64,000 bases of DNA from Chloroflexota bacterium (GCA_044506615.1 JBIQKJ010000005.1:67344-131343); one strand, 5' to 3'. Numbered from the stretch's first letter, positions 20,969-51,138 are shown. Notes: generated by a model from the letters alone, not told the origin. Numbers and translations: made by a program.

Positions 20969-20971
20969 GCC

Positions 20972-24922: not shown

Positions 24923-24962
24923 CCGGCTGGCCGGTGCACCGGCGCCGCTACACTTGCCGGCG

Positions 24963-32490: not shown

Positions 32491-33468
32491 ATGACCGAGC
32501 AGAAGCACCGCAAGGCGCTCATCCGCGCGCGGATGGCGCGGACCGGCGAGTCGTACACGGTCGCGCGCAGCCACATCGTCGCGCGCGAGATTCCGCCGAG
32601 CCTGACCCCCACGGCCGCCTTCCAGGCCCACGACCGTCACTGCATGACGGTCGTGTTCACGCCCGACGACCAGGAGCTGATCAGCGGCGGCTTCGGTGGC
32701 CAGGCACGGATCTGGACCCTCGACGGCCGGCCCGCCGGCGAGCTGGCCGGACACGAGCAATCGGTGAACGTCGTGCGCATCTCGGCGGACGGCGAGACCG
32801 CGATCACGGCGAGCTCCGACAAGACGGTGCGCGTGTGGGACCTCCCGACACGCAGCGAGCGCGGGATCCTCGGGCGGCACCGTCGCCAGATCCTCTCGCT
32901 CGACCTCGATGCGGCGCGCGGTCGGGCGTGGAGCGGCGGTCACGACGGCAGGCTCATCGCCTGGGACCTCGAGCGCGGGGACGCGATCGTCGAGCTGGAC
33001 CTCGGCACATCGGTGACCGCGCTCGCGGTCCGTGCCTCGGACGGCGCGGTCCTCGCCGGCACGGCTGGCGGGGGGATCGCGATCGTCGACCCGGACGGAG
33101 CGCTCCTGACCCGGCTCGGGGATCCGGCAGCCGTGATCGGCTCGGCGTCCTGGGCCGCCGACGGCTCGTTCCTGATCGCCTCGACCCGGGACGGCTCCAC
33201 GATCTGGGCCGCGGACGGCTGGGAAGCGGTCCGCACCCTCGTCGGCGGGTCGGGCAGCATGCTCCCGGTCGCGCTGAGCCCGGACGGGAGCCGCATCGCG
33301 CTCGGGTGGGACAACCACCTCGGCCTGTGGAGCGCCGACGAGTCGGCGCCTGCGGTGACCGTCGACGGTCTGCCGAAGGGCGTCTACGGCTTGTCGTTCT
33401 CGCACGACGGTCGGCATCTTGCGATGTCGGCCGCCGACGGGCGCGTGCGGCTCTGGTCGGTCACGTAG
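32491..33468 (+). CDS. WD40-repeat beta-propeller protein
   Basis: Repeated ...GH...V..V.FSPDG...SDKTVRVWD... blades; ATG 32491. Confidence 0.75.
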   Translation: MTEQKHRKALIRARMARTGESYTVARSHIVAREIPPSLTPTAAFQAHDRHCMTVVFTPDDQELISGGFGGQARIWTLDGRPAGELAGHEQSVNVVRISADGETAITASSDKTVRVWDLPTRSERGILGRHRRQILSLDLDAARGRAWSGGHDGRLIAWDLERGDAIVELDLGTSVTALAVRASDGAVLAGTAGGGIAIVDPDGALLTRLGDPAAVIGSASWAADGSFLIASTRDGSTIWAADGWEAVRTLVGGSGSMLPVALSPDGSRIALGWDNHLGLWSADESAPAVTVDGLPKGVYGLSFSHDGRHLAMSAADGRVRLWSVT

Positions 33469-33516: not shown

Positions 33517-34641
33517 TCAGGAGCCGAGGAACCGCTCCACGAAGCGGTCGCTCGCGCGCCCGTCCGCGTCGCCGAGGTGCCGGGCGATGAACGCGTCCCA
33601 CGCCGCGTCGTCGACGCGGGACGATCGGACCGCCTCGATCACCTCGTCGGTCGTCGTCGCGATCGCGCCGACGAGGTCGCGGCGCATGTCGAGGTACAGG
33701 CCGGGATCGGCCTCGTAGGCCGCGAGATCGGGCACGATCAGCACGATCGGCCGACGCAGCAGCGCGAACTCGAAGACCGAGGACGAGTAGTCGGTCAGCA
33801 GGACGTCGGTCGCCGTGAAGACCTCGTTGATCTCCAGCCGGGGATCGATGACCACGTCGAAGCCGGCGGTCCACGCCGGGTCCACCGCGAGGTTCGGGTG
33901 GGTCTTGACCGCGAGCACGTGATCCGCGGGCAGCGCGGCTCGGAGCCGCGCGGTGTCGATCGGTGGGCCGGGGTGCTTGCCGCGACCGCGGCCGCGGAAC
34001 GTCGGGGCGTAGAGGACGACCCGGCCCCCCGCGAGCGCCGGATAGCGCCGGAGGACGGCCGCCCGGGCCGCGTCCATCGACTCACGGTCGAAGAAGAAGT
34101 CGGTGCGGGCCGAGCCGAGCGGGAGCACCCGCTCGAAGGGCGTGCGGAACGCGCGCGCCCACGGCTCGCGCGACGCCTCCGACGTCGTGACGACGTAGTC
34201 GTAGCCGCGGTGGAGGAACGACCGCTCGGGCTCCTCGAGCGGCTGGCTGGTGTCGGCCCCGAAGCGCTTGAGCGCCCCGACCGCGTGCCACACCTGGACC
34301 ACGGTGGTCGACGGGCGACGGGACCCCACGTGGACGGGGAGGTACGCGTTGTCGATGACGACCAGCCGCGCGGTCTGGAGGTGGTACATGCCGCGGATCG
34401 TCCGGAGCAGGTAGCCGAGCTTGGCGCGGAGGCCGTAGCCGTACGGCTCGAGCAGCAGCACGTACCGCAGGTCCGGCCGCCGCCGACGCATCGCGGCGAA
34501 GATCCAGGCCAGGTTGCCCTCCAGGGCGGTGTGGCGGGGGCTGGCGAGCACGACGCGGTTGGGTCGGACCGGGAGCAGGCGGCACAGGGCGGCAACGATG
34601 CGCAGGAGGGCCTGCGCGAGGCGGAACTCGAGCCGGCTCAT
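33517..34641 (-). CDS. CDP-glycerol/CDP-ribitol:poly(alditol phosphate) phosphotransferase, TagF/TagB family
   Basis: VVLYAPTFRGRGRG and LAVKTHPN motifs of TagF family. Confidence 0.75.
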   Translation of the reverse strand: MSRLEFRLAQALLRIVAALCRLLPVRPNRVVLASPRHTALEGNLAWIFAAMRRRRPDLRYVLLLEPYGYGLRAKLGYLLRTIRGMYHLQTARLVVIDNAYLPVHVGSRRPSTTVVQVWHAVGALKRFGADTSQPLEEPERSFLHRGYDYVVTTSEASREPWARAFRTPFERVLPLGSARTDFFFDRESMDAARAAVLRRYPALAGGRVVLYAPTFRGRGRGKHPGPPIDTARLRAALPADHVLAVKTHPNLAVDPAWTAGFDVVIDPRLEINEVFTATDVLLTDYSSSVFEFALLRRPIVLIVPDLAAYEADPGLYLDMRRDLVGAIATTTDEVIEAVRSSRVDDAAWDAFIARHLGDADGRASDRFVERFLGS

Positions 34642-36161
34642 CCGGGGCGACGCTGACCCCCCGGCAGTGCCTCCGCGGCGACGGAACCCGGCACGCCCTC
34701 GCCGGCGGCGGCCTCGCCGCCGGGGACGTCGACCGGGCCGGTCCTCGTCGGATCTCCCGCCGGCGCCGCGGCGCCGTCGTGACGCTTGATGTCGACCACC
34801 TGGCCCGTCAGGTCGGAGCGGAGCAGCCGGAGGGTGGCGACGGCCACCTCGGCCGCGGTGAGCATCCCGACCGGGGATTCGTCGGGGAACGCGCGCCGGC
34901 GCATCGGCGTGTCGGTGCGCTCCGGGCTCACCGCGTTGACGCGGATGCGGTCGTCGGCCCACTCGTCCGCGAGCCCCTGGACGACGTTGACGACCGCGGC
35001 CTTGCTCGCGGAGTAGGCGACGTATTCCGGGCGTCCGCGGGTGAACGAGCTCGACGCGAAGAGCGTCAACGAGCCGGCCGCGTCCCGGAGATGCGGGTAG
35101 GCCGCGCGGGCGACGTTGAGCGACCCGGTCAGGTTGACGTCGATGATCTCGGCAAGCTCCTCGGGCTGCGTCTCGCTGACCCGGCCGATCCGCAGCAGCC
35201 CCGCGGTGCACACGACGTGGTCGAGCCCGCCGAGCGCCTCCGCGGCGGCGTCGACCCGAGCCTGTACCGCCGCGGCGTCCCGGATGTCGAGCCCGAGCGA
35301 CCGGCCCTCGACCGCGGTCCGCGCACCGAGCCGCCCGGCCTCATCGGCAATCGCCTTGCCGATGCCGTTCGTGCCGCCGATCACGAGGATCCGATCGCCC
35401 TCGAGCGTCTCCTCCGCCACCCCGGGCGCGGGCGGGGCGAGGATGCGCATCTGGAGCATGCGGTCGGCGAGCACGAGGTCGATGCGCGTCGTGATCTTCA
35501 GGTTGACCTCGTCGCCGGCCACGGCCAGGACCCGCGCCGACGGCACGTAGCGCAGGACGAGGCTGCAGTCGTCGGTCGCCTGGAGGTCGCCCGCGTCGGC
35601 GGCCCGCTCGTACGCCGCGCGGAGCACGCCCGCCAGGAAGACCTGCGGGGTCTGGCCCCGGCGGTAGCGCGCCCGGTCGGGGATCTCGACGACGTCGTCC
35701 CCCTCCACCACGACGAGCGTGTCGGCGCTCGGAATGACGGTGTCGGTCGCCTCCGCGACGCCGGTCGCGACGGGCTCGATCGAGCGGCGAACGACGTCGA
35801 CCGGGACCAGCGGGCGGACGGCGTCGTGGACGACGACGACGTCCGAGTCGGCCGCGCCCAGCGCCCGAAGCCCGGCGAGCGTGCTCTCGTTGCGTGTCGC
35901 CCCGCCCGGCACGACCGACACGGGCACGCCCCCGACCGCCTCACCGACGGCCGCCGTGGTCTGGGGCACCCAGTCCGGATGCGACACGATCACGATCCGG
36001 TCGACGCCCGCCTCCGCGACCGCCCGGACGCTCCGGACGAGGATCTCCTCGCCGGCCAGCCGGATGAACTGCTTGGGCTTCTCGGCCCCGAAGCGCGTGC
36101 CGCCGCCGCCGGCGAGCAGGATCGCGAGGATGCGCCGCTCGGGCGTCGGGCGCTCGGTCAC
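34638..36161 (-). CDS. Bifunctional IspD/TarI-type cytidylyltransferase + SDR reductase (Bcs1-like CDP-ribitol synthase)
   Basis: N-terminal ILLAGGGGTRFG...K cytidylyltransferase; C-terminal GGTNGIGKA...YSASKAA SDR; GTG start overlaps upstream stop. Confidence 0.75.
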   Translation of the reverse strand: MTERPTPERRILAILLAGGGGTRFGAEKPKQFIRLAGEEILVRSVRAVAEAGVDRIVIVSHPDWVPQTTAAVGEAVGGVPVSVVPGGATRNESTLAGLRALGAADSDVVVVHDAVRPLVPVDVVRRSIEPVATGVAEATDTVIPSADTLVVVEGDDVVEIPDRARYRRGQTPQVFLAGVLRAAYERAADAGDLQATDDCSLVLRYVPSARVLAVAGDEVNLKITTRIDLVLADRMLQMRILAPPAPGVAEETLEGDRILVIGGTNGIGKAIADEAGRLGARTAVEGRSLGLDIRDAAAVQARVDAAAEALGGLDHVVCTAGLLRIGRVSETQPEELAEIIDVNLTGSLNVARAAYPHLRDAAGSLTLFASSSFTRGRPEYVAYSASKAAVVNVVQGLADEWADDRIRVNAVSPERTDTPMRRRAFPDESPVGMLTAAEVAVATLRLLRSDLTGQVVDIKRHDGAAAPAGDPTRTGPVDVPGGEAAAGEGVPGSVAAEALPGGQRRPG

Positions 36162-37573
36162 GTGAGCCGCCGCGACGACATGCCACGGGACGCGATGCGG
36201 CGAACACGTCGGATGAAGGGGCGCCAGGGCCGTCCGGCACGCCGCCGCCGGTGCATCTCGTGGGTCATGGGGGGCCGGATCCGGGGACGGGGCTCGGTCG
36301 CGACTCGGATGAGCTCGTCGGCATGCGCCTGCGTCCTCGGGTCTGCCATGCGCGCGCGCATGTCCCAGGCGCGCATTCGCTGCTCCTCACGCTCGGACAT
36401 GCGGCCGAGCCGTGCGTCCAGCTCAGCCACGACCCACGCGCGATGGCCGTCGGCGACTCCGTCGGCCGATGGGGCGTACCAGCGCTTGAGCCACGACAGG
36501 TTGGACGAGTCGGCGCGGACTCTCTCCCGAAGCAGTCGCATCAGCCGGCTCGAGCCCGGGTAGCGGGCGAGCGTGAACGCGACCACGTCCTCGTGGGGGA
36601 TCGGGACCTGGCTCAGGCGTTTCACGGAGTCGCGCCCCCTGATCATGTGCTCGAGATCTGCGTCGCTTGGCCAGACCCCGGTCAGCGCGGCATCGAGGGT
36701 CGACTTTCGGAAGCACTTCCAGCACGACCGGCACGGTTCGCCGGGCTGGCCGCGAATGCAGGACTGGACCAGATCACTCCATGGAGAGCCGGTGCAGATG
36801 CGTGCCGTCCCGACCTCGCTCACGCCGGCGACCGGGCTACCGAACTGGAGTCCGACGGCGGCGAATGCCGTCGCCCACGGCACGCGTCGCCGACTCCAGT
36901 CGAGGAACACGGGATGGCCAATCCCGTAGGCGCTCTCGGCGATCACGCCCCAGCTGACCGAGTCGAAGCACCGCTTGTCGGCGAGCAGGACGGCAGCGGC
37001 CGCGTTCGCCCAGTCGGTCGGGAAGCCAACGGCGTTGCGGAGGTGCTCGAAGTCGGACTCGACGACCGACACGAAGCGCCCGTGCCGGGTTTGTAGCTGC
37101 TCGATCGCGTACATCGCGGCGTCGTCACGATAGATGGACCGAATCTCGCCAGCCGGGGGATCGATCCGGCGATGGAAGACAGCCTGGGTGTGGGTCGGCA
37201 TCACGGTCAGCGCGGCGAACGAGTCGGCGCCTCCGCTGAAGGCCAGCGCCGGGAGACCGTCCGCGGGTGTCGACCGTGGTTCGAGCGTGGTGTCGATCGG
37301 TGCCAGATCAACCTTCAGGTGCTCGTGCACGGCGCGCGCGAACGGCTCCGAGACCCCGCGATCGAACGCCAGCGCGTTCGCCCACGGTCGAAGCAGGAGC
37401 ACGACGGCGAGCGCCTCCAGATCTGGGTGAACGTCGTCGGCCACGAGGTCGGCGATCCGGAAACGTGCTTCGAAACGGACCATGTTCCCGCGGGTCCGCT
37501 CGATCGGTTCGCCGTTCTCGGCGACGAAGCGGAAGGTGGGTCCGTCAGCGCCCCAGTCCGTGTGCACCCTCAC
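36158..37573 (-). CDS. PP-loop superfamily ATPase (SGGADS motif) with C-terminal Cys cluster; candidate sugar amidotransferase/amidoligase
   Basis: LAFSGGADSFAAL PP-loop; CIRGQPGEPCRSCWKC; Arg-rich tail. Confidence 0.6.
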   Translation of the reverse strand: MRVHTDWGADGPTFRFVAENGEPIERTRGNMVRFEARFRIADLVADDVHPDLEALAVVLLLRPWANALAFDRGVSEPFARAVHEHLKVDLAPIDTTLEPRSTPADGLPALAFSGGADSFAALTVMPTHTQAVFHRRIDPPAGEIRSIYRDDAAMYAIEQLQTRHGRFVSVVESDFEHLRNAVGFPTDWANAAAAVLLADKRCFDSVSWGVIAESAYGIGHPVFLDWSRRRVPWATAFAAVGLQFGSPVAGVSEVGTARICTGSPWSDLVQSCIRGQPGEPCRSCWKCFRKSTLDAALTGVWPSDADLEHMIRGRDSVKRLSQVPIPHEDVVAFTLARYPGSSRLMRLLRERVRADSSNLSWLKRWYAPSADGVADGHRAWVVAELDARLGRMSEREEQRMRAWDMRARMADPRTQAHADELIRVATEPRPRIRPPMTHEMHRRRRAGRPWRPFIRRVRRIASRGMSSRRLT

Positions 37574-37686: not shown

Positions 37687-38871
37687 ATGCGCCGTGTCCT
37701 CACCCTGCTTCGCCTCGCCTTGGTCCGGGCGGGCTTCGCCGCCGGTCGCCGGCTCCCGCTCAGGCGTCGGGTCGTGCTCGCAACCGCGCACGCCGAGCGC
37801 ATCTCGGGCAACCTCGAGTTCATCCGCCGCGAGCTCGCAGCCCGGTACCCCGGGCTGCCAGTGACGGTCTTCGCGTTCCGCCAGTCGACCTCGCGAGGTG
37901 GCCGGATCGGGGCGGCGATCAAGGCGCTGCGGTCCGGCTTCCTGCTCGCGACCTCGCGGGTCGTCGTGGTCGACGACTACTTCTTCCCGATCTACGCGGT
38001 CACGCCGCGACCGGGCACGGTGCGCGCGCAGGTGTGGCACGCGTGCGGGGCCTTCAAGAAGTTCGGCTACTCCGTCGTCGAGAAGGAGTTCGGGGCGGAC
38101 GAGGACCTCCTGAAGCACGTCCGCATTCACAGCAACTACGACATCGTCCTGGTCTCGTCCCGGTCGGTCGCCCCGCACTATGCCGAGGCGTTCGACCAGC
38201 CGCTCGAGCTGTTCCGGTCCGATCTGGGCATCCCGCGCACCGACGTCTTCTTCGGGGAGGAGCGGATCGCCGCCACGGCCGCGTCGGTTCGTGCCCGCTA
38301 TGCGATCCCCGCCGACCGGCGGGTCGTCCTGTACGCCCCGACGTTCCGTGGTGCGACGATCGGCCAGGCCGCGCATCCCGCACACCTCGACCTTCCCCGG
38401 ATGCACGAGGCGCTCGGTGACGACCACGTCGTGCTCGTGCGGCTGCACCCGTTCGTCCGTGCCGCCGCGCCGATCCCGCCTGAGCTCGCCGGGTTCGCGA
38501 TCGACGTCTCCGATCACCCCGAGTTCAACGAGCTCCTGCTCGTGACCGACGTGCTCGTGACCGACTACTCGAGCGCGATCTTCGAGTTCGCGTTGCTCGG
38601 CCGGCCGATGGCCTTCCTCGCTCCCGACCATGCCGCCTACGAACGCGAGCGGGGGTTCTACTTCGACTACGCGAGCGGAGTTCCGGGTCCGGTCTTCGAG
38701 ACGACCGACGCACTCGCCGGGTGGCTTCGCTCGGGCGTGGTGGACCTCGATCGAGTCGCGCGCTTCCGGCAGGCGTCGTTCGACGTCGCCGACGGCGGGG
38801 CGACGGCCCGCTTCGTCGACCGCGTCGTCGTGCCCGGACTCCGCGATGGGAGCATCGCGCGTCCCTCCTGA
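37687..38871 (+). CDS. Second TagF/TagB-family alditol-phosphate transferase
   Basis: VVLYAPTFRGATIG and LVRLHPFV motifs. Confidence 0.75.
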   Translation: MRRVLTLLRLALVRAGFAAGRRLPLRRRVVLATAHAERISGNLEFIRRELAARYPGLPVTVFAFRQSTSRGGRIGAAIKALRSGFLLATSRVVVVDDYFFPIYAVTPRPGTVRAQVWHACGAFKKFGYSVVEKEFGADEDLLKHVRIHSNYDIVLVSSRSVAPHYAEAFDQPLELFRSDLGIPRTDVFFGEERIAATAASVRARYAIPADRRVVLYAPTFRGATIGQAAHPAHLDLPRMHEALGDDHVVLVRLHPFVRAAAPIPPELAGFAIDVSDHPEFNELLLVTDVLVTDYSSAIFEFALLGRPMAFLAPDHAAYERERGFYFDYASGVPGPVFETTDALAGWLRSGVVDLDRVARFRQASFDVADGGATARFVDRVVVPGLRDGSIARPS

Positions 38872-40852: not shown

Positions 40853-42157
40853 GTGACCCAGGATCGCCGCGTGGCCGTCATCGGCCTTGGCTATGTCGGC
40901 CTGCCGCTCGCCATCGCGTTCGTCGAGGCGGGACTCGACGTCGAGGGCATCGACGCGTCGCCGGCCCGCGTCGCCGAGCTGTGCTCCCGGCGCTCGCCGA
41001 TCGACGACGTCTCCGACGAGCGGCTGTCGGCCGCGTTGGACCGGGGGCTGACGGTGGTTCCCACGATCGACGCCCACCTCCGCGACGCCGACGCCGTGTT
41101 CGTGTGCGTCCCGACCCCGATCACGACGACCAAGGACCCGGACCTCGGACCGGTGCTGTCGGCCGGCGCGTTCATCCGCGAGCACGTCCGGGCGGGTCAG
41201 CTCATCGTCCTGCAGTCGACGACGTACCCCGGGACCACGACCGGGCCGTTCCGGGCCGAGATCGAGCGCAGCGGGCTGAAGGCCGGAACCGACTTCGATC
41301 TCGCGTTCGCCCCGGAGCGCGTCAACCCGGGCGACCCCGCCAGCGCCTCGAAGGGCGTCCCCCGGCTGGTCGGCGCGACGACGCGCGAGGGGACCGCCCG
41401 CGCGGCGGCGCTGCTGCGCAACGTCAACGACCAGGTGGTCGAGCTGTCCTCGCCGGACGCGGCCGAGCTCGCCAAGCTCCTCGAGAACGTCTTCCGCAAC
41501 ATCAACATCGCCTTCGTCAACCAGCTTGCGCTGCTGTGCGAGCGGATGGGCCTCGACGTCTGGGAGGTGATCGACGCCGCCGCGACGAAGCCGTTCGGGT
41601 TCATGCGGTTCACGCCGGGACCGGGCGTCGGTGGGCACTGCATCCCGGTGGACCCCTACTACCTCGCGTGGCGAGCCCGCGAGTTCGACTTCACCGATCG
41701 GTTCATTGAGGCGGCCGGCGACATCAACTTCGCGATGCCCCGGCACGTCGTCGACCTCACCGGTGAGGCGCTCAACGAGCGCGGTCGCGCGATCAAGGGC
41801 TCGAAGGTCGGCGTGCTCGGAGTCGCCTTCAAGCCGAACGTCCAGGACGCCCGCAACTCGCCGGCCGCCGACGTGCTCGCGGGCATCGCCGAGCGCGGCG
41901 CGGAGGTCCGCTTCCACGACCCGCACGTCCCGGAGTTCCGTGACGCGGCGGGTGCGGTTCGGACGAACACGGACCTCGACGAGCTTCTCGGCTGGGCCGA
42001 CGTCGTCGTGGTCGTCACTCCCCACCGGGCGATCGACTGGGACGTCGTCTACGACCGGGCCGATCTCGTCGTCGACACCGTCAACAGCTCGGCGGGACGG
42101 GCCGTTCGGCCGCGCCAGGTCCTGCGTCTCGGAGCCGGCTGGTCGAGCGAGGGCTGA
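40853..42157 (+). CDS. Nucleotide-sugar 6-dehydrogenase (UDP-N-acetyl-D-mannosamine/glucosamine dehydrogenase-like, WecC/WbpA family)
   Basis: VAVIGLGYVGLPLA Rossmann, GGHCIP catalytic Cys, C-terminal UDP-binding domain. Confidence 0.85.
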   Translation: MTQDRRVAVIGLGYVGLPLAIAFVEAGLDVEGIDASPARVAELCSRRSPIDDVSDERLSAALDRGLTVVPTIDAHLRDADAVFVCVPTPITTTKDPDLGPVLSAGAFIREHVRAGQLIVLQSTTYPGTTTGPFRAEIERSGLKAGTDFDLAFAPERVNPGDPASASKGVPRLVGATTREGTARAAALLRNVNDQVVELSSPDAAELAKLLENVFRNINIAFVNQLALLCERMGLDVWEVIDAAATKPFGFMRFTPGPGVGGHCIPVDPYYLAWRAREFDFTDRFIEAAGDINFAMPRHVVDLTGEALNERGRAIKGSKVGVLGVAFKPNVQDARNSPAADVLAGIAERGAEVRFHDPHVPEFRDAAGAVRTNTDLDELLGWADVVVVVTPHRAIDWDVVYDRADLVVDTVNSSAGRAVRPRQVLRLGAGWSSEG

Positions 42158-42201: not shown

Positions 42202-44424
42202 ATGGGCGGCGCCACGCCGGCGAGGGACCGGGCCACGGGTGCCGCCGAACGGGGAGCGTCCGTGACGACCGCGACCACCGCGACGCACGTCCTGCGGATC
42301 AGCCACGCTGCGCGGGCGCCTGGACCCGACGAGGTCGTGCTCGTCACCGACACGACCTGGACACCGCGTGCCGGAGAGGCGCAATCGGGCCGCGTCATCT
42401 CGTTGCGCGATGTCGCCGAGCGCGTGATGCGCGAGCGCGACGTGATCGCCGAGACGGCCGGCCTCCTCGACGACTGGGCCGAGTCGACCGGCATCGCCGA
42501 GCTCCTCGCGGTGGACGGGACCTCGTTCTGGTACGGGATGCGCCTCCGCCACTGGACGTGGCTGCTCGACCAGCTGCTGTGGATCACGATCCTCGACGAC
42601 GTGCTGGCGGGTGCGGGCCCGCGTGCGATCGCGATCGAGCACGGCGTCGACGAGGGCCTCGTCGAGGCGGGACGGCTGGTGGCGGCGCGGGACGGCCTGC
42701 GCTTCGAGCCGCCACCGCCGGTCGCGGTCGCGGCGAGCGCGCCGGCCGGCCCGCCGGCGGCGGATGCGGCCGCTGCGGACGATCTCGACGCCGATCCGCC
42801 GGACCACCAACCGGCCGATCCCCCGGCCGCCGCCAGGGTGTCCGCCCACGCCGACGCACCACGAGCCCCGGTTGCACGCGTGGGCGCGCCTCGTCGGAAG
42901 GGCCAGGGCAAGGGCAGGCGCAGGGGCGGTGCCAGGGGGATCGTGAGGCGGATCCGACGACGGATCAGCGGTGCACGCCAGGAGTCCCAGCGGCTGCCGC
43001 GCGCCCCGGAGCCGCCGCGCGAGCCGATCCTGCAGCGGCTGAACCAGTCCCTGCGCGACCGATTCTTCCCACCGGAGCCGGAGCGCCGCCGACGGCTCGC
43101 GCTCAAGCGCCTCGACAGGATCGCGAACAGCAGGGTCCGGCCGCTGCTCGTCGTCCAGGCGCACGTCCGGCAGCGTGTCGACACGCCCGCCGGCTCACGC
43201 CTCGTCAACACGTACCTCGGCCCGGTCCTGGACCGCCTCCGGGGTTCCGACCTCGATCCGGTCGAGCTCGACATCCGCGGCTTCCTGGAGGACGACGAGA
43301 CATGGGAGCGGCTCCGGGAGCAGGGCGGTGAGCGGATGCTGCCGGCCGACGTCCTCACGATCGCCCAGGAGGATCCGGTCGTCCCGGGGCTGAAGGAGCG
43401 CGCAGCCGCCCTCTCGAACCGCCTCGCGACGCTCGACGCCCCGCTCGTCGTGTCCGGCATCGACCTGGGACCCGCGCTGGCGCGCCGCGTCGCCCAGCGC
43501 TCGCGTGCCGCGCTCGTCCGGGCGATCGTCGATGTCGAGCGCATCAGGCGGCTGATCCGGCGCATCCGGCCGGCCGGGATCCTGCTGGCGGACGAGTACC
43601 ACCGCCAGGACTGGCTCGCGGCCGCCGCGCGGGAGCGGATCCCGACCGCAGCCATCCAGCACGGCGTCATCTACCGTTGGCACACCGGGTACATCCACCG
43701 GACGCGACCCGCCTCGTTGCGGCTGCCGAACCGCACCTACGTCTTCGGTGAGTGGGAGCGCGACCTGCTGGTCACGCACAGCGTGTACCGGCCCGACGAG
43801 GTCGTCGTCGGTGGCTCGCCACGGCTCGACCTCCACGATCCCGGGCCCGTCGACCGGGAGGCCGTCCGCGCGGAGATCGGCGTCGACCCTGAGGACCGGA
43901 TGGTCGTGCTCTCGGGCACCTGGGGGCCCATGTACCGCCGATTCCACTACCCGATCGCGCTCGCGCGCCTGTTCGACCGGAGCGTCGAACGCGTCCACCT
44001 GGTCGTCAAGCTCCATCCGTCCGAGCGGGACGAAGGACCGTACCGGGAGGCGATCGAGCGCCTGGCCGCCGCTCGCGGGTTCGCGCCGCCCCGGATCTCG
44101 GTGGTGCAGCGGGTGGATCTCTACCGGCTGCTCGCGGCGGCCGATGCCCACCTCGGGATCCACTCCACGGTCCTCACCGAGGCCGTCGTGACCGGCACGC
44201 GGAACCTCCTGGCGGACGTGCTCGCGGCGAGCGACCTGCTGGGCTACGTCGACGCGGGAGCCGCACACCCGGTCCGCTGCGCCGACGACCTCGAGGCCGC
44301 CCTCGCGCGCCCGCGCGAGGCGCTCACGTCGGGTTCGGCGCGTGAGGCGTTCCTGCGCGCGCACTTCGAGCCGGGGGAGGCCAGCCGCCGGATCGCGGAC
44401 GACCTCCTGGCATGGCTGCGCTGA
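42202..44424 (+). CDS. Large GT-B-like polymer-synthesis protein with TagF/KpsC-S-like C-terminal domain; candidate nonulosonate or alditol-phosphate transferase
   Basis: C-terminal VVLSGTWGPMYRRF...LVVKLHPSERDE echoes the YAPTxR / KxHP motifs of the two TagF homologues; translationally coupled to the downstream NeuA-NeuB fusion. Confidence 0.55.
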   Translation: MGGATPARDRATGAAERGASVTTATTATHVLRISHAARAPGPDEVVLVTDTTWTPRAGEAQSGRVISLRDVAERVMRERDVIAETAGLLDDWAESTGIAELLAVDGTSFWYGMRLRHWTWLLDQLLWITILDDVLAGAGPRAIAIEHGVDEGLVEAGRLVAARDGLRFEPPPPVAVAASAPAGPPAADAAAADDLDADPPDHQPADPPAAARVSAHADAPRAPVARVGAPRRKGQGKGRRRGGARGIVRRIRRRISGARQESQRLPRAPEPPREPILQRLNQSLRDRFFPPEPERRRRLALKRLDRIANSRVRPLLVVQAHVRQRVDTPAGSRLVNTYLGPVLDRLRGSDLDPVELDIRGFLEDDETWERLREQGGERMLPADVLTIAQEDPVVPGLKERAAALSNRLATLDAPLVVSGIDLGPALARRVAQRSRAALVRAIVDVERIRRLIRRIRPAGILLADEYHRQDWLAAAARERIPTAAIQHGVIYRWHTGYIHRTRPASLRLPNRTYVFGEWERDLLVTHSVYRPDEVVVGGSPRLDLHDPGPVDREAVRAEIGVDPEDRMVVLSGTWGPMYRRFHYPIALARLFDRSVERVHLVVKLHPSERDEGPYREAIERLAAARGFAPPRISVVQRVDLYRLLAAADAHLGIHSTVLTEAVVTGTRNLLADVLAASDLLGYVDAGAAHPVRCADDLEAALARPREALTSGSAREAFLRAHFEPGEASRRIADDLLAWLR

Positions 44425-46139
44425 GCAGTCCGCTCCTGTTCCTCGTGCCGGCGCGCGCCGGCAGCGTTCGGGTCCCGGGCAAGAACCTGCGGCTCGTGGC
44501 GGGCATCCCGCTCGTCGGGTGGGGGATCCGGATCGCACGGCTCGCGGCGGCACGGCTGCCCGGCGGACCGCACGTCGTCGCCTGCAGCACCGACGACGCG
44601 GAGATCGGAGCGGTTGCCACGGCCTGGGGCGCGGACGCGATCATCGCCCGGCCGCCCGCGCTTGCAACGGCGACCGCGACCTCGGTCGATGTCGCGATCC
44701 ACGCGCTCGACGAGCTGGCAACCCCCGGCTCCATGTTCCGTGCGGTCGTGCTCGTCCAGGCCACCTCCCCGCTGACCCATCCCGGGGACATGGTCGCGGC
44801 CGTCGAGCGCTTCGATGGCGGCGCCGACTCGGTGGTGAGCGTCACGCCCAGTCACCCGGCCGCGTGGCACCTGGGGCTCGAGGCCGGCGAGGGCGCCGAC
44901 GCGCACGACGATGTCCTCACCGGCGCCTTCTACGTCGTCGCGCCCGAGGTCCTGCGGACCCGGCGCCGGTTCGTCGAACCCGGGCGCACGGAGCCGTTCC
45001 GGGTCCCGCCCGATCGCTCGATCGACGTCGACGAGCCGCTCGACCTCGTGCTCGCCGAGGGCATCCTGGCGGCGCGCCCGGTCCGGCCGCTGTCGATCGG
45101 GGACCGTGCCGTCGGCGGGGGCCGAGCGTTCGTCATCGCGGAGGCCGGGGTCAACCACGACGGCCGCCCCGAGCTCGCCCATCGCCTGGTCGACGCGGCG
45201 GCGGACGCCGGCGCCGACGCCGTCAAGTTCCAGACGTTCGACCCCGCGGCGCTGGCCGCCGCCGACGCCCCGACCGCCGACTACCAGCGATCGCGCGGCG
45301 AGACCGGGAGCCAGCGGGCGATGCTCGAGCGGCTCGCGCTGCCCGCGGACGCCTGGCTCGCACTCCAGGCGCACGCCCGCGAGCGCGGTCTCGCCTTCCT
45401 CTCGACACCGTTCGACCTGGTGTCGGCGGACCTGCTCGATCGGCTCGACGTTCCCGCATTCAAGGTCGGCTCGGGCGAGCTCACGAACATCCCGTTCCTC
45501 GCGGCGCTCGCCCGTCGGGGCCGCCCGATGCTGGTCTCGACCGGGATGGCGACGATGGTCGAGGTCGCCGACGCCGTGGACGCGATCGCCTCGGCGGGCG
45601 ACCCGCCGCTCGCGCTGTTCCACTGCGTGTCGAGCTACCCGGCACGGCCGGAGGACGCCAACCTGCGGGCGATCGAGACCATGCGGCGCGCGTTCGGCGT
45701 GCCGGTCGGCTGGTCCGACCACACGCTCGGCGTCGAGCTCCCGCTGGCGGCGGTCGCCGCGGGCGCCGTGCTCGTCGAGAAGCACGTGACGCTCGACCGC
45801 ACGATGCCGGGTCCCGACCACGCGGCCTCGCTCGAGCCGGGGGAGCTGCGCGCGATGGTCGTCGGGATCCGGGCCGTCGAGGCCGCGCTCGGCACGGGGC
45901 GCAAGGAGCCCGTCCCGGCCGAGCAGCCGATCGCGCGCGTCGCCCGCCGCAGCCTCCATTGGCGGCGCGCCCTTCCCGCCGGCGCCGTGATCGCGGAGGC
46001 GGACCTCGTTGCGCTGCGCCCGGGGACCGGGCTGTCGCCGGCCCGCGCGGCGGGCCTGGTGGGTCGCCGCACACGACGCGCGGTGGAGGCGGGAGCGCTG
46101 GCCCTCGAGGACGACGCCGAGCCCGGGACGCCGCGGTGA
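44412..46139 (+). CDS. Fused acylneuraminate cytidylyltransferase (NeuA/LegF-like) + N-acylneuraminate-type nonulosonate synthase (NeuB/LegI-like)
   Basis: N-terminal LVPARAGSVRVPGKN (CMP-sugar synthetase motif); C-terminal AFVIAEAGVNHDG, KFQTF and SAF domain. Confidence 0.85.
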   Translation: MAALSSPLLFLVPARAGSVRVPGKNLRLVAGIPLVGWGIRIARLAAARLPGGPHVVACSTDDAEIGAVATAWGADAIIARPPALATATATSVDVAIHALDELATPGSMFRAVVLVQATSPLTHPGDMVAAVERFDGGADSVVSVTPSHPAAWHLGLEAGEGADAHDDVLTGAFYVVAPEVLRTRRRFVEPGRTEPFRVPPDRSIDVDEPLDLVLAEGILAARPVRPLSIGDRAVGGGRAFVIAEAGVNHDGRPELAHRLVDAAADAGADAVKFQTFDPAALAAADAPTADYQRSRGETGSQRAMLERLALPADAWLALQAHARERGLAFLSTPFDLVSADLLDRLDVPAFKVGSGELTNIPFLAALARRGRPMLVSTGMATMVEVADAVDAIASAGDPPLALFHCVSSYPARPEDANLRAIETMRRAFGVPVGWSDHTLGVELPLAAVAAGAVLVEKHVTLDRTMPGPDHAASLEPGELRAMVVGIRAVEAALGTGRKEPVPAEQPIARVARRSLHWRRALPAGAVIAEADLVALRPGTGLSPARAAGLVGRRTRRAVEAGALALEDDAEPGTPR

Positions 46140-47326
46140 GCGCGGCAGGAAGCGAGGGCAGCCGGCCGGTGTGTCGGGTGGCGGTCCTGACGACGGGCCG
46201 CCAGGATTGGGGGATCCTCCGCTCGACCTGCGAGGCGCTTCGGGACACCCCCGGCATCGAGCTCCGTGTGCTTGCCGGCGGGATGCACCTCTCGAATCGG
46301 CACGGTCGAACCGTCGAGCGTGTCCGGGAGGCAGGTTTCGAGCCCGTCGAGCTGGCGTGGCTGTCCGAGGCCGGCGACGACGCCCCGGATCGCCAGGCCG
46401 CCGAGGCCCTGGCGCGGATCGGGGAGGCGCTCCGGGACGATCCGCCCGACGCGCTGGTCCTCGTCGGGGATCGCTTCGAGACCGCCGCAGCGGCGTTGGC
46501 CGCGACCCTGGCCCGGGTCCCGATCGTCCATCTCCACGGCGGCGAGCAGTCGCTCGGCGCGTTCGACGACGCCCTCCGGCACGCGATCACGAAGCTCGCC
46601 CACCTCCACCTCGTGAGCGCCGACGAGCACGCTCACCGCGTCGTCGCGCTCGGCGAGGACCCGGGGAGCGTCCGCGTCGTCGGGGCCCCGGGTCTCGACA
46701 ACGCCTTCCGAGCCGACCTGCCGGACCGTGCGGCGCTCGAACGCGAGCTCGGGATCGCGCTCGTGCCGCCAGTCGTCCTCGTGACGGTCCACCCCGCCAC
46801 GCTCGACCCGGATCCGGCCGCGGTCGCCGACGCGGTCGCGGCTGCGATGGCTGCCGTCCCGGCGACGTACGTCGTGACGCTGCCGAACGTCGATCCGGGC
46901 GGGGAGCGGGTCCGCTCCACGCTCGTCGCGTCCGTGTCCGCGATCAGGGCAGCGGGGACCCCGGCTGTGGCGGTCGAGGCGCTCGGCGAGGTCCGCTACT
47001 GGGGGCTGCTGCGCCTCGCGGACGCGCTGCTCGGGAACAGCTCGAGCGGACTCGTCGAGGCGCCCGCCCTCCGCGTGCCGGCCGTGAACGTCGGCGATCG
47101 GCAGGCGGGTCGACTGCGCTGGCCGAGCGTCGTCGATGCGCCGGCCGACGCGCGTGCCGTGACCGAAGCGCTCCGCACGGCGCTCGACCCCGCCTTCCGA
47201 GACGGGCTCGACGGCGCGTCGACGCCGCTGGCGGACGGTCGGGCCGGGCGGCGCGTTGCCGATATCATCGCGGCATGGCGACCGACCAGGCCACCGCGCA
47301 AGCCGCCGGTCCGGATCGAGGGGTGA
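46136..47326 (+). CDS. UDP/GDP-N-acetylglucosamine 2-epimerase (hydrolysing), NeuC/LegG-like
   Basis: GTGA start/stop overlap; VHLHGGE, DRFET motifs of non-hydrolysing/hydrolysing 2-epimerase family. Confidence 0.8.
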   Translation: MSAAGSEGSRPVCRVAVLTTGRQDWGILRSTCEALRDTPGIELRVLAGGMHLSNRHGRTVERVREAGFEPVELAWLSEAGDDAPDRQAAEALARIGEALRDDPPDALVLVGDRFETAAAALAATLARVPIVHLHGGEQSLGAFDDALRHAITKLAHLHLVSADEHAHRVVALGEDPGSVRVVGAPGLDNAFRADLPDRAALERELGIALVPPVVLVTVHPATLDPDPAAVADAVAAAMAAVPATYVVTLPNVDPGGERVRSTLVASVSAIRAAGTPAVAVEALGEVRYWGLLRLADALLGNSSSGLVEAPALRVPAVNVGDRQAGRLRWPSVVDAPADARAVTEALRTALDPAFRDGLDGASTPLADGRAGRRVADIIAAWRPTRPPRKPPVRIEG

Positions 47327-47943
47327 CGCGCCGATCGCTCGTGATCCTCGGGGCGGGCGGTCACGCTCGCGTCGTTGCGGACGCCGCCCGCTCGGACCCG
47401 ACGGCGTGGGACTCGGTGGAGCTCGTCGACGCCGACGGGGACGCAGCGCTGCTGACACGGCTCCGGGAGCTGCCCGGCGACGAGCGGCCTGCGCTGGTGC
47501 TCGGCTTCGGTGCAACCCCGGCCGGCCGAAGGGCGGCGGTCGAGTGGTTCGGTGACACGGCGCGCTGGGCGTCGATCGTTCACGCGACCGCCTCCGTTTC
47601 GCCGAGCGCGGTGATCGAGCCCGGCGCGGTGGTGCTCGCTCGGGCGGTCGTGAACGCAGGCGCGACCGTCGGCCGCCACGCGATCGTCAACAGCGGCGCG
47701 ATCGTCGAGCACGACAGCGTGGTCGGCGCGTTCGCCCACCTCGCGCCCGGCGCTGTGCTCGGCGGCGGCGCGGCGGTCGGGGATCGCGCGACGATCGGCA
47801 TGGGCGCGCTGATCCGCGACCATCGGACCGTCGGGGAGGACGCGGTTGTCGGGATGGGCGCGGTGGTCGTGCGCGACGTGCCGCTCGGTCGGACGGTCGT
47901 CGGCAACCCCGCCGGTCCGCTGCGCGGCCGGCGGCCGGGCTGA
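47323..47943 (+). CDS. NeuD/LegH-like hexapeptide-repeat sugar N-/O-acetyltransferase
   Basis: LVILGAGGHARVV N-terminal Rossmann-like then LbH repeats; start GTG 47323 (alternatively ATG 47275). Confidence 0.7.
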   Translation: MTRRSLVILGAGGHARVVADAARSDPTAWDSVELVDADGDAALLTRLRELPGDERPALVLGFGATPAGRRAAVEWFGDTARWASIVHATASVSPSAVIEPGAVVLARAVVNAGATVGRHAIVNSGAIVEHDSVVGAFAHLAPGAVLGGGAAVGDRATIGMGALIRDHRTVGEDAVVGMGAVVVRDVPLGRTVVGNPAGPLRGRRPG

Positions 47944-47946
47944 CGG

Positions 47947-48984
47947 ATGGAGGGCTCGTTCCGAGACTGTCTCGTCTCCGAGGCGGGATCCATCCGCGAC
48001 GCGATGCGTGCGGTCGATCGCGGCGCGAGCGGGATCGCCCTCGCGGTGGACGACCGCGGCCGGCTCGTCGGCGTGGCCACGGACGGCGACCTCCGCCGCG
48101 CGCTGCTCGCCGGCACCGACCTCGGCGAGCCGCTCGCTCCGTCGCTCAACCGCTCGTTCGTCGCGCTGCGCCCCGGCCAGACCCGCTCGGACATCCTCGA
48201 GCTCATGCAGGCCCGCCGGATCCAGGCGATCCCGATCGTCGACGATCACGGGAGGCCGATCGGGCTCCACCTGCTGCGCACGTTCCTCACCGCGACGCCA
48301 CGCACGAACTGGGCGGTCATCATGGCCGGCGGACGTGGGGAGCGCCTGCGACCGCTCACCGATTCGATCCCGAAACCGATGCTTCGCGTCGCCGGCCGAC
48401 CCATCCTCGAACGGATCATCCTCCACCTCGTCGGCTTCGGGATCTCGCGGGTGTTCATCTCGATCGGGTACCAGGGGCACGTGATCGAGGGCCACTTCGG
48501 CGACGGCCACGCGTTCGGCTGCTCCATCGAGTACGTCCGCGAGGAGGAGCCGCTCGGGACCGCGGGCGCGCTCGCGCTCCTGCCCGAGCCGCCGAGCGAG
48601 CCGCTGCTGCTGCTCAACGGCGACCTCGTCACGAACGTCGACGTCGATGCGCTGTTCACGTTCCACGAGACCGGCGGCTACGCGGCGACGATCGGCACGC
48701 GACGGTACGTCCACACGATCCCGTTCGGGTGCGTCGAGCGGGACGAGGGACGCGTCGTCGGGCTCGTCGAGAAGCCGGCGATCGCGCGCGAGGTGAACGC
48801 CGGGATCTACGTCGTGGAGCCGTCGGTGGTGGCGCGGGTGCCCGTGGGCGAACCGAGCACGATGCCGGGGCTCCTCGAGGGCCTCATCGCCGACGGGCGC
48901 CCGGTCGGGGCGTTCGAGATCGACGGCGACTGGATCGACGTCGGGCAGCGCGACGAGCTGAACCGGGCGCGGGAGGGAACGTGA
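47947..48984 (+). CDS. CBS-domain-containing sugar-1-phosphate nucleotidyltransferase (PtmE-like GlcN-1-P guanylyltransferase candidate)
   Basis: Tandem CBS motifs then VIMAGGRGERLRPLTDSIPKP nucleotidyltransferase motif. Confidence 0.8.
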   Translation: MEGSFRDCLVSEAGSIRDAMRAVDRGASGIALAVDDRGRLVGVATDGDLRRALLAGTDLGEPLAPSLNRSFVALRPGQTRSDILELMQARRIQAIPIVDDHGRPIGLHLLRTFLTATPRTNWAVIMAGGRGERLRPLTDSIPKPMLRVAGRPILERIILHLVGFGISRVFISIGYQGHVIEGHFGDGHAFGCSIEYVREEEPLGTAGALALLPEPPSEPLLLLNGDLVTNVDVDALFTFHETGGYAATIGTRRYVHTIPFGCVERDEGRVVGLVEKPAIAREVNAGIYVVEPSVVARVPVGEPSTMPGLLEGLIADGRPVGAFEIDGDWIDVGQRDELNRAREGT

Positions 48985-49982
48985 GCGGAGCGTTGCGCGG
49001 CGTCCCGGTCCTCGTGACCGGCGCCGACGGGTTCATCGGCAGCCACCTCGTCGAGCGCCTCGTCACCGAGGGCGCGTCGGTCCGCGCGTTCTGCGTCTAC
49101 AACTCGCGCGGGTCGGCCGGCTGGCTCGACACGGTCCCGGCCGAGGTTCGGCGGGCCTGCGACATCCGGCTCGGCGACGTGCGCGACGCCCGGTTCGTCG
49201 AGCGCGCCGCCGAGGGGATCGAGGTCGTCTTCCACCTCGCTGCGCTGATCGCGATCCCGTACTCCTACATCGCGGCCGAGTCGTTCGTCGAGACCAACGT
49301 GCGGGGCACGCTCAACGTCCTCGAGGCGGCCCGGCGGGCGGGGGTGCGCCGGCTCATCGAGACGTCCACGAGCGAGGTCTACGGAACCCCCGAGCACCTG
49401 CCGATCCGCGAGACGCACCCGCTCAATGCCCAGTCGCCGTACGCGGCGTCGAAGGTCGCCGCCGACCAGCTGTCGCTCGCCTTCCACCGCTCGTTCGACC
49501 TGCCGGTCGTCGTGCTGCGGCCGTTCAATACGTTCGGGCCGCGCCAGTCCGAGCGGGCCGTGCTCGCGACGATGCTCCGTCAGCTCCTCGACGGCCGGCC
49601 GGAGATCCGTCTCGGGCGGCTGGACACGCGGCGCGACATGACCTACGTCGCGGACACCGTCGACGGGTTCATCCGGGCGGCGACCGCCGATGGGATCGAC
49701 GGGCGCACGATTCAGCTCGGCACCGGGCGGACCGAATCGATCGGCGAGCTGCTGGCGATTGCGCGGCGGTTGACCGGCTCGAACGCCGAGGTCGTCGAGG
49801 ATGCCGACCGGCTGCGGCCCGACGCGAGCGAGGTCCTCGTCCTCCAATCCGACCCGACGCTCGCCCGCGAGCTGTTGGGCTGGGAGGCGCGGACGTCGCT
49901 CGAGGACGGGATCGCGGCGATGATCGACTGGCTGCGGTCGCAGCCGGCGTCGCCCGACGAGGTCGTGCGTGTCCAGCTCTGA
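48981..49982 (+). CDS. NAD-dependent extended SDR epimerase/dehydratase (candidate NDP-GlcNAc 4,6-dehydratase, LegB-like)
   Basis: VLVTGADGFIGSHL, YAASK catalytic motif; GTGA overlap with upstream gene. Confidence 0.8.
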   Translation: MSGALRGVPVLVTGADGFIGSHLVERLVTEGASVRAFCVYNSRGSAGWLDTVPAEVRRACDIRLGDVRDARFVERAAEGIEVVFHLAALIAIPYSYIAAESFVETNVRGTLNVLEAARRAGVRRLIETSTSEVYGTPEHLPIRETHPLNAQSPYAASKVAADQLSLAFHRSFDLPVVVLRPFNTFGPRQSERAVLATMLRQLLDGRPEIRLGRLDTRRDMTYVADTVDGFIRAATADGIDGRTIQLGTGRTESIGELLAIARRLTGSNAEVVEDADRLRPDASEVLVLQSDPTLARELLGWEARTSLEDGIAAMIDWLRSQPASPDEVVRVQL

Positions 49983-51138
49983 GGCCCGCACCCCCCAGGG
50001 ACGGATTCCGCTCGCGGAGCCGTCGATCGGCGGCAATGCGGCGCGGTACCTGGCCGAGTGCCTCGCGACCAACTTCGTGTCGTCGGTGGGGCCGTTCGTC
50101 GGGCGGTTCGAGGAGGAGTTCGCGCGCGCGGTCGGGGCCGGGCATGCGGTCGCCTGCGCGTCGGGGACGGCCGCGATCCACCTCGCGCTGCGCGTCCTCG
50201 ACGTCGGGCCCGGCGACGAGGTCCTCGTCCCCACGCTCACGTTCGTGGCGTCGGCCAACCCGGTCCGCTACGTCGGCGCCGAGCCCGTGCTCGTCGACGT
50301 CGAGCCCGAGACGTACAACCTCGATCCGGACGCGGTCGTTGCGGAGCTCGACCGGCGCTCCCGGACCGGCGAGCGGCAGCCCGCCGCCATCGAGGTCGTC
50401 CACCTGCTCGGGCATCCGGCCGCGATCGAGCCGGTCGTCGAGGCAGCCGAACGCCACGGTGTCCCGGTGGTCGAGGACGCGTCGGAGGCGCTCGGCGCGA
50501 CGTACCGCGGCGGTCGCTGGGACGGGCGCGCGGTCGGCACGATCGGGCGGGTGGGCTGCTTCAGCTTCAACGGCAACAAGCTCATCACGACCGGCGGGGG
50601 CGGGATGCTCGTCACCGACGACGAGGCGCTTGCCCGGCGCGCCCGCCACCTCTCCACGCAGGCCCGCCTGCCCGGGCCGGCCTACGACCACGACGAGGTC
50701 GGCTACAACTACCGGCTCTCGAACGTGGCGGCCGCCCTCGGGGTCGCCCAGCTCGAGCAGCTCGCGGATCTGCTCGCGGCGCGTCGACGCATCGCCGGCA
50801 GGTACGACGCCTGGATCGCCGGCCGTCCCGGGCTCGTCCCGGCGCCGCGCGCTCCGTGGGCCGACCCGTCGTTCTGGCTGTACACGACCGCCGCGGACCC
50901 CGACGCGACCGACTGCTCGCGCGACGACCTGCTCGCGGCGCTGGCCGCCGACGGGATCGAAGGCCGGCCGATCTGGACGCCGCTCCACCGGACCCGGCTG
51001 TACGCCGACGCCCGGCACATCGGCGGCGACACCGCGGACCGCATCTTCGCGCGCGCCTTCAGCCTGCCCTCGTCGTCGAGCCTGACGGACCTCCAGCAGG
51101 ACCGGGTCATGGCCGCGCTGGAGGCCGCGCTCCGGTGA
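49969..51138 (+). CDS. DegT/DnrJ/EryC1/StrS family PLP-dependent sugar aminotransferase (LegC/PseC-like)
   Basis: IPLAEPSIGG..., FSFNGNK PLP lysine motif. Confidence 0.85.
   Translation: MSSSEARTPQGRIPLAEPSIGGNAARYLAECLATNFVSSVGPFVGRFEEEFARAVGAGHAVACASGTAAIHLALRVLDVGPGDEVLVPTLTFVASANPVRYVGAEPVLVDVEPETYNLDPDAVVAELDRRSRTGERQPAAIEVVHLLGHPAAIEPVVEAAERHGVPVVEDASEALGATYRGGRWDGRAVGTIGRVGCFSFNGNKLITTGGGGMLVTDDEALARRARHLSTQARLPGPAYDHDEVGYNYRLSNVAAALGVAQLEQLADLLAARRRIAGRYDAWIAGRPGLVPAPRAPWADPSFWLYTTAADPDATDCSRDDLLAALAADGIEGRPIWTPLHRTRLYADARHIGGDTADRIFARAFSLPSSSSLTDLQQDRVMAALEAALR

Follow-up and report, generated by a model that had tools for sequence, protein, structure and literature searches.

In this study we show that a set of genes at positions 44412-51138 of a 64,000-nucleotide stretch of DNA from a Chloroflexota bacterium (GCA_044506615.1 JBIQKJ010000005.1:67344-131343; the whole stretch is called the window below, with positions counted from its first letter) begins with a genuine and conserved fusion of two enzymes, a LegF/NeuA-like cytidine monophosphate (CMP)-nonulosonate synthetase and a LegI/NeuB-like nonulosonate synthase, in one protein of 575 amino acids (aa). 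Legionaminic acid (Leg) is a bacterial mimic of sialic acid that attracts interest both in glyco-engineering and in the study of cell surfaces. The region probably encodes (at a rough probability of 0.8) the synthesis of CMP-Leg, i.e. of activated 5,7-diacetamido-3,5,7,9-tetradeoxy-nonulosonate, by the type of route known from Campylobacter and Tannerella, in which the intermediates are linked to guanosine diphosphate (GDP). The pathway itself is textbook knowledge; the fusion is frequent in databases and in environmental bacteria, and as it merely links neighbouring genes whose products act one after the other, it is useful rather than surprising. CMP-Leg is hard to obtain, and a natural one-polypeptide synthase-synthetase could simplify its enzymatic production.

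A genuine and conserved LegF-LegI fusion

The joining of synthase and CMP-transferase in one 575-aa protein had been proposed in the first-pass annotation of this DNA, and we were able to confirm it. An identical protein with unchanged neighbours is encoded both on an NCBI contig (207,970 bp) and on a contig from an independent Logan assembly, and because the identical open reading frame (ORF) is present in two independent assemblies the fusion is no assembly artefact. Its architecture is shared by homologues: all 120 of the 120 clusters at 90% identity among the homologues listed contain both Pfam domains (569-646 aa, 61-71% identity), and of the best 150 matches among 1.84 billion cluster representatives at 50% identity, at least 38 are full-length fused proteins, with identities down to 37%. 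Fused homologues are named 'N,N'-diacetyllegionaminate synthase' or 'sialic acid synthase SpsE/CMP-N-acetylneuraminic acid synthetase' by the JGI pipeline. Current understanding is not overturned by this finding; pipelines of the JGI type already annotate the fused architecture automatically.

The AlphaFold2 (AF2) model of the protein is confident (predicted local distance difference test score, pLDDT, 93.4; predicted template modelling score, pTM, 0.88) and weak only at residues ~150-170. Foldseek aligned it with NeuB and PseI at template modelling (TM) scores of 0.82-0.90 and with CMP-nonulosonate synthetases at 0.75-0.81; no chain spanning both halves was found in the PDB by this search. 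The two domains are connected by a linker of at most ~5 residues. In the synthase half the motifs IAE.GVNH.G, KFQTF, SGELTN, GWSDH and EKH.TLDR..GPDH are kept across the 120 fused homologues, and the invariant residues E244, E356, E456, H437, H458 and R536 correspond to E25, E134, E234, H215, H236 and R314 of Neisseria meningitidis NeuB. Motifs conserved in the LegF half of the same homologues are the P-loop PAR.GS.R.P.KN, QPTSPL (QATSPL in the window protein) and the D.D metal motif. To judge from alignment and model, the LegF domain is under clear conservation and folds confidently, and by its Pfam score above the cut-off, its fold and its motifs it is predicted to be a CMP-nonulosonate synthetase, sugar specificity aside.

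In full-text searches of the literature outside subscription journals we found no description of a natural LegF-LegI or NeuA-NeuB fusion, and a large phylogeny paper on nonulosonic acid (NulO) synthases makes no mention of a synthetase-synthase fusion. The fusion partner of NeuA in E. coli is an esterase domain and not NeuB. Nonulosonate pathways contain other natural fusions, namely the mammalian epimerase-kinase GNE and a Leptospira NeuB with a phosphatase-like domain (PMC3438082). They follow the same principle, an accessory or consecutive activity being joined to a core enzyme, although the partners differ. The fusion described here serves as a 'Rosetta stone' for LegF and LegI working together.

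Distribution and origin of the fusion

A tblastn scan of species-representative genomes yielded 80 loci, in which fusion was called by a frame-aware ORF check and a check with hidden Markov models (HMMs). Seven of the 80 are fused, and they belong to two Candidatus Limnocylindrales metagenome-assembled genomes (MAGs), an unclassified MAG, Archangium (partial), a Myxococcaceae MAG, a Gemmatimonadales MAG and a Thermoplasmata archaeon. The other 73 are not fused, and most of them have legF directly upstream of a separate legI. A much wider spread of the fusion, suggested by tblastn matches spanning query residues ~8-565, was rejected, as the ORF, frame and HMM checks leave 7 of 80. Apparent LegH-LegI fusions at three loci (L028, L058 and L046) were rejected as well, since what precedes LegI there is Arg-rich read-through of high-GC DNA in an alternate frame. 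The gene order legF-legI-legG-legH-ptmE-legB-legC recurs in Chloroflexota, Planctomycetota, Clostridium, Armatimonadota, Verrucomicrobiota and others.

A neighbour-joining tree was calculated from the TIM barrel of the synthases, with PseI chosen as outgroup and with PDB-derived SpsE, PseI, N. meningitidis NeuB and 6NCS as references together with E. coli K1 NeuB from UTI89. The window protein groups with the fused proteins of Limnocylindrales (bootstrap 100 and 83), the other fused sequences are scattered among unfused ones, and monophyly of all fused sequences was obtained in 0 of 100 replicates. Judged by this tree the fusion probably arose more than once; its deep nodes are weak, so that the number of events is uncertain. 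The scatter suggests repeated read-through between ancestrally adjacent legF and legI genes, and the fusion in the window would have originated in the same way from two neighbouring ancestral genes.

Other architectures containing a NeuB domain were noted in proteins of 594-963 aa, with the synthase at the N- or the C-terminus (P0294, P0324, P0343, P0348, P0375 and P0390). At locus L083 of a relative, a group of genes on the minus strand (6153-9860), divergent from the fused cassette, comprises a second, stand-alone CTP_transf_3 gene and genes for a Gfo/Idh/MocA oxidoreductase, a short-chain dehydrogenase/reductase and a GSCFA protein. This group may represent a second nonulosonate-modifying or activating branch, which is absent from the window.

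Probable synthesis of CMP-legionaminic acid

HMM and Pfam scans found every one of the enzyme types that the first-pass annotation had listed for 44412-51138, all in one reading direction and with a third-position GC of 0.85-0.96 (Table 1). In the pathway that we propose, PtmE would convert glucosamine-1-phosphate into GDP-glucosamine, which would then be N-acetylated by a housekeeping enzyme. LegB would dehydrate the GDP-N-acetylglucosamine (GDP-GlcNAc) at C4,6, LegC would aminate it at C4 and LegH would N-acetylate it to GDP-N,N'-diacetylbacillosamine, from which LegG would remove GDP with epimerisation at C2. The LegI domain would condense the resulting 2,4-diacetamido-2,4,6-trideoxy-mannose with phosphoenolpyruvate, and the LegF domain of the same polypeptide would combine the LegI product with cytidine triphosphate to give CMP-Leg. 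The fusion would in this way unite the last two consecutive steps and force 1:1 production of both activities, and by a proximity effect it may hold free Leg near the site of activation. A GT-B-fold protein encoded upstream, translationally coupled to the fusion gene, would use the CMP-Leg inside a larger wall-glycopolymer cluster.

The earlier assignment of the genes to a legionaminic rather than a pseudaminic (Pse) route is supported by the higher scores of the Leg-side HMMs and by the types of enzymes present. The dehydratase matches the LegB model TIGR04180 with 410.2 bits (cut-off 475), followed by the model for dTDP-glucose dehydratase (143.7 bits), and reaches 90.7 bits with that for GDP-mannose dehydratase and 52.3 bits with the PseB model (cut-off 407.75). 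The aminotransferase scores 400.9 bits with the LegC model TIGR04181 (cut-off 420) vs 255.5 with PseC, and the synthase domain 396.3 bits with TIGR03569 (cut-off 399.65) vs 272.8 with the PseI model (cut-off 340.25); PseF gave a secondary match of 70.5 bits. Scores above the cut-off were obtained for the LegH protein (TIGR03570, 175.3 bits, cut-off 160.8), which has a PglD_N domain, and for the LegG protein (TIGR03568, 329.6 bits, cut-off 235.9). Top PDB matches of the latter are 5XVS and 5ZLR, annotated as 'GDP/UDP-N,N'-diacetylbacillosamine 2-epimerase (hydrolyzing)' (219 bits), while its sequence does not separate LegG from NeuC. The Pse route uses no hydrolysing 2-epimerase, and HMM scans of 44412-51138 found no protein of the PseG or PseH type.

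The top PDB sequence match of the synthase domain is SpsE of Bacillus subtilis (1VLI, 206 bits), which is genetically required for legionaminic acid synthesis in that bacterium (PMC7439481). A phylogeny of the synthase had been suggested as a check of the assignment, which a place in the NeuB (sialic) or PseI clade would have refuted; no such place was seen. In our tree the synthase domain does not group with Campylobacter jejuni PseI, N. meningitidis NeuB or E. coli K1 NeuB, but with synthases from cassettes containing legB, legC and ptmE, although the tree cannot cleanly split synthases for N-acetylneuraminic acid (Neu5Ac) from those for Leg. PseI, the chosen outgroup, is well outside the clade holding the window synthase, and N. 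meningitidis NeuB is outside the broad clade of legB/legC-cassette synthases.

A GDP-linked route is plausible by analogy, from the PtmE-type nucleotidyltransferase and from the nearest relatives of LegC. The PtmE-type gene lies between legH and legB, a position conserved in many genomes, and its catalytic domain is nearest to mannose-1-phosphate guanylyltransferases among both families and structures. The top PDB matches of the LegC protein are GDP-perosamine synthases (292 bits). In a study of Tannerella forsythia a set of enzymes with Leg-like scores, with LegG and PtmE as diagnostic features, was then confirmed biochemically, and LegB and LegC of this species act only on GDP-linked substrates (PMC5378307).

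The GDP-linked CMP-Leg pathway of C. jejuni and T. forsythia is one of the closest known systems, and all seven functions are predicted in the window, including the diagnostic 2-epimerase and CBS-nucleotidyltransferase. However, LegF and LegI are encoded there by separate genes (PMC5378307, Table I) and in the window by one. C. jejuni and T. forsythia are also host-associated Gram-negative bacteria, whereas the window comes from a high-GC environmental bacterium. The sps genes of B. subtilis (spsM, C, D, G, E and F) encode the closest solved sequence relative of our synthase domain, but that system is linked to uridine diphosphate (UDP), does without PtmE and makes SpsE and SpsF as two proteins (PMC7439481). 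Its Leg goes onto the spore crust surface layer, not onto lipopolysaccharide or flagellin (PMC7439481). In the Neu loci of E. coli K1 and N. meningitidis the synthase, cytidylyltransferase, epimerase and acetyltransferase are homologous to those of the window, which keeps the catalytic residues of N. meningitidis NeuB; these loci have no dehydratase, aminotransferase or PtmE, and identity to the window proteins is 21-38%.

Alternative explanations

Several observations weigh against a CMP-Leg cassette. The LegB, LegC and NeuB model scores (410 vs 475, 401 vs 420 and 396.3 vs 399.65 bits) are just under the NCBI curated equivalog cut-offs. E. coli K1 NeuB, a Neu5Ac enzyme, nests inside the broad clade of legB/legC-cassette synthases, beside L035 with a bootstrap of 53, in a tree with few experimentally anchored references. 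It may be that Neu5Ac synthases do not form a clade apart from the Leg synthases, or that the tree lacks the power to tell, and the argument for the sugar rests mainly on gene context. As stereochemistry and N-acyl groups are not readable from sequence, we infer the identity of the sugar, and the specificity for GTP and GDP is taken from analogy alone. The LegF half is divergent, too: the Pfam model aligned over its first half alone, the Lys of the GSKG motif is replaced in the window protein by Val, followed by a clade-conserved Arg, and the RRQD motif present in most LegF proteins is missing in the window clade.

These changes in LegF are shared within a clade. In the window protein and its relatives around L002 the GSKG Lys (LegF residues ~17-21) is changed to Val or Gln, followed by Arg, and the insert that elsewhere forms the dimerisation and sugar-binding lobe (residues ~150-170) is ~15-20 residues shorter. 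Other fused LegF-LegI proteins (L004, L008 and L009) retain the GSKG Lys, the RRQD motif and the full insert. Loss of RRQD does not imply inactivity, because E. coli NeuA is also without it. We speculate that dimerisation through the synthase half may have relaxed the constraint on the shortened LegF lobe.

It is unlikely, but worth considering, that a Leg-type route runs here on UDP-linked intermediates, as in Legionella pneumophila and B. subtilis, or that instead of plain Leg5Ac7Ac an isomer (8-epi- or 4-epi-legionaminic acid, for example) or a variant in the N-acyl groups, such as an acetamidino derivative, is made. Leg is known to be synthesised by UDP as well as by GDP routes (PMC6137143; PMC7439481), nucleotide specificity and stereochemistry are unreadable from these sequences, and the LegB and LegC scores stay under their cut-offs; the guanylyltransferase-like catalytic domain of the PtmE-type protein and the conserved place of its gene between legH and legB argue for GDP, however, and no extra epimerase or amidotransferase gene is present within 44412-51138. 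We regard it as somewhat less probable still that two pathways lie side by side, a NeuD/B/A/C-type one for Neu5Ac made up of fusion, epimerase and acetyltransferase, and a second one that leads through PtmE, dehydratase and aminotransferase to an unrelated sugar, GDP-linked and of the 4-amino-4,6-dideoxy type (perosamine- or bacillosamine-like). E. coli K1 NeuB, NeuC, NeuA and NeuD do align with the window proteins at 38%, 29%, 30% and 21% identity, K1 NeuB nests in the broad synthase clade, and the nearest solved relatives of LegC are GDP-perosamine synthases. Against this, all seven functions co-occur in the same order in many phyla, which speaks for a single pathway; the dehydratase prefers the LegB model to that for GDP-mannose dehydratase (410 vs 90.7 bits), the nearest solved relative of the epimerase is specific for N,N'-diacetylbacillosamine, and the synthase is nearest to the Leg enzyme SpsE.

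That the 575-aa ORF might be an artefact of a frameshift or assembly error, or that one of its domains might have decayed, is disfavoured by the data and very improbable: the 73 unfused loci among 80 and the divergent LegF half would be in line with it, but the identical ORF in two independent assemblies, the dozens of diverged homologues with the same architecture and with catalytic motifs kept in both halves, and the confident two-domain AF2 model contradict it. A pseudaminic acid pathway, likewise disfavoured, is hardly conceivable. Its secondary matches (PseI 272.8, PseC 255.5 and PseF 70.5 bits) and the fit of the synthase fold to C. jejuni PseI (TM 0.88-0.90) are outweighed by the fact that all Pse models except PseF fall well below their Leg or Neu counterparts, with PseB at just 52 bits. 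In addition PseG and PseH types were not found within the cassette, a 2-epimerase foreign to the Pse route is present, and PseI, as the chosen outgroup, is placed well outside the clade of the window protein.

Organization of the region

The window has a G+C content of ~73%, so that raw ORF lists are full of spurious frames, and the coding frame of each gene was chosen by third-position GC. The features are collected in Table 1. Where seven genes had been counted before, 44412-51138 contains six co-directional ORFs that encode seven enzyme functions, the fusion supplying two. The description of these genes as a chain of GTGA and ATGA overlaps stands in part: from 5' to 3' the junctions are -4 (GTGA), -4 (GTGA), a gap of +3 (47943/47947), -4 (GTGA) and -14 nt, i.e. 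there are three GTGA overlaps and one longer overlap, no ATGA junction occurs among the gene junctions within 44412-51138, and the chain is broken once by the gap. The strict co-translation stoichiometry deduced from it goes beyond the evidence. Tight gene packing and overlaps are usual in this clade, and a 1:1 ratio is forced solely for the fused LegF-LegI pair. The start of the LegG-type gene agrees with the public gene call; the LegH-type gene has an alternative ATG at 47275. A scan for promoters and terminators gave no promoter and one terminator at chance level, and is uninformative in this high-GC DNA.

Table 1. Features of the cassette and of its surroundings in the window
Feature	Position	Strand	Evidence or remark
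IspD + short-chain dehydrogenase fusion (TarI/TarJ or Bcs1 CDP-alditol synthase type), 507 aa, and DUF6395 protein, 471 aa, with 4-nt overlap	34638-37573	-	divergent from TagF-like gene
TagF-like CDP-glycerol/ribitol phosphotransferase	~37687-38871	+	PF04464, 247 bits
Glycosyltransferase family 4 (GT4) protein, 603 aa	38930-40741	+	PF00534, PF13692
NDP-sugar 6-dehydrogenase (UDP-ManNAc/GlcNAc dehydrogenase-like)	40853-42157	+	TIGR03026, 392.9 bits, cut-off 189.8
Uncharacterised GT-B-fold family protein, 740 aa (720 aa if GTG start 42262)	42202..44424	+	weak TIGR04396; AF2 fold
LegF-LegI fusion, 575 aa	44412-46139	+	CTP_transf_3 + NeuB + SAF
LegF-like domain (residues 1-225), predicted CMP-nonulosonate synthetase (cytidylyltransferase)	44412..45086	+	PF02348, 47.5 bits, cut-off 22.6
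LegI-like domain (residues 226-575), nonulosonate synthase TIM barrel + SAF	45087..46139	+	PF03102, 300.8 bits; SAF, 26.8 bits
LegG/NeuC-type hydrolysing NDP-sugar 2-epimerase, 396 aa, GTG start, GTGA overlap	46136-47326	+	TIGR03568
LegH-type N-acetyltransferase (NeuD/PglB/VioB left-handed beta-helix), 206 aa, GTGA overlap	47323-47943	+	TIGR03570; PglD_N + Hexapep
PtmE-type CBS-pair + sugar-1-phosphate nucleotidyltransferase, 345 aa, preceded by 3-nt gap	47947-48984	+	CBS x2 + NTP_transferase
LegB-type NAD-dependent NDP-GlcNAc 4,6-dehydratase, 333 aa, GTGA overlap	48981-49982	+	TIGR04180
LegC-type pyridoxal phosphate-dependent aminotransferase, 389 aa, 14-nt overlap	49969-51138	+	TIGR04181

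A candidate user of CMP-Leg

The gene for the 740-aa protein overlaps the fusion gene by 13 nt, so that it joins the chain as a seventh gene, and lies upstream of the region that had been delimited in the first-pass annotation. Its product matched no Pfam domain, and a sequence search of the PDB found no relative. Of 52 members of its family, 51 weakly matched TIGR04396 ('surface carbohydrate biosynthesis protein') and 10 the BFO_1060 family glycosyltransferase model, with scores far under the cut-offs (35 vs 125 and 20 vs 200 bits, respectively); in T. forsythia BFO_1060 lies at the margin of the NulO locus. AF2 modelled the protein with a GT-B fold (pLDDT 87); it has an additional N-terminal region and contains a disordered Pro/Ala/Arg-rich linker of ~85 residues. 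A fold search with the model returned generic GT-B proteins, nearest of all 2-epimerases and GT1 enzymes, and no specific match to TagF or to a sialyltransferase. A few homologues carry PF04464, and hhalign of the 740-aa protein with the TagF-like protein of the window gave E=0.048 and a probability of 1.1%, with GSPRxD and KLHP motifs aligned.

Homologues of the 740-aa protein are encoded directly upstream of the fused gene at L002 and L084 and downstream of the cassette at L083. At L084 (6585-10013) the homologue is fused to a GT4 domain and has the same 13-nt overlap, and including this one we noted GT4-fused members of the family of 1060-1204 aa (P0137, P0150, P0151, P0186, P0215 and L084). 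The window has one gene for the GT4 protein and another for the 740-aa protein, on either side of the dehydrogenase gene. The fusion found elsewhere suggests, as Rosetta-stone evidence, that the GT4 and GT-B proteins act together.

To our knowledge very few Leg transferases are known. By guilt by association the 740-aa protein is the best candidate user of CMP-Leg, and its conserved link to the cassette makes the GT-B family a concrete candidate for a Leg transferase. More tentatively, it might be possible that fused LegF-LegI and the GT-B protein form a make-and-transfer module, in which Leg would be handed directly to the activating site and the GT-B protein would represent a new family of Leg transferases or polymerases, by which Chloroflexota of the Limnocylindria type would build a wall polymer that resembles teichoic acid and contains Leg. 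The searchable literature yielded no paper on nonulosonic acids in these bacteria. The locus suggests that such sugars decorate the walls of soil and freshwater Chloroflexota, which are abundant but little studied.

Surrounding genes and host

The nearest relatives of the fusion and of the 740-aa protein come from Ca. Limnocylindrales and other Chloroflexota MAGs, and these matches point to a host with high GC that is related to Candidatus Limnocylindrales (Chloroflexota). The co-directional cluster that includes the cassette likely begins with the TagF-like gene, whose ATG at 37687 lies just past the divergent minus-strand gene ending at 37573. Together with the CDP-alditol synthase pair the TagF-like gene suggests a teichoic-acid-like polymer. 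An NDP-sugar dehydrogenase gene adjoins the cassette in L083 as well. Downstream the cassette ends at 51138 and is followed by a PpiC/SurA-like gene with a probable start at 51230. Further upstream, mreB, mreC and genes for an RmlA-like nucleotidyltransferase and an RmlD-like reductase (rhamnose genes) are found at 16966-21895, and a glycosyltransferase family 2 gene at 24954-25775. The Leg cassette is located within a long stretch of cell-envelope genes, which looks like a wall-glycopolymer locus of teichoic-acid type.

Two further observations were made in the window. The gene for a WD40 beta-propeller protein of 345 aa (32431-33468) overlaps with the end of a minus-strand ORF of 423 aa (31341-32612) that has no family match, and the gene calls are uncertain there. 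At 22640-24922 a 760-aa protein is encoded that has a FlgD Ig-like domain and a weak match to CHU_C, a type IX secretion signal, a combination that is unexpected in a Chloroflexota-like genome.

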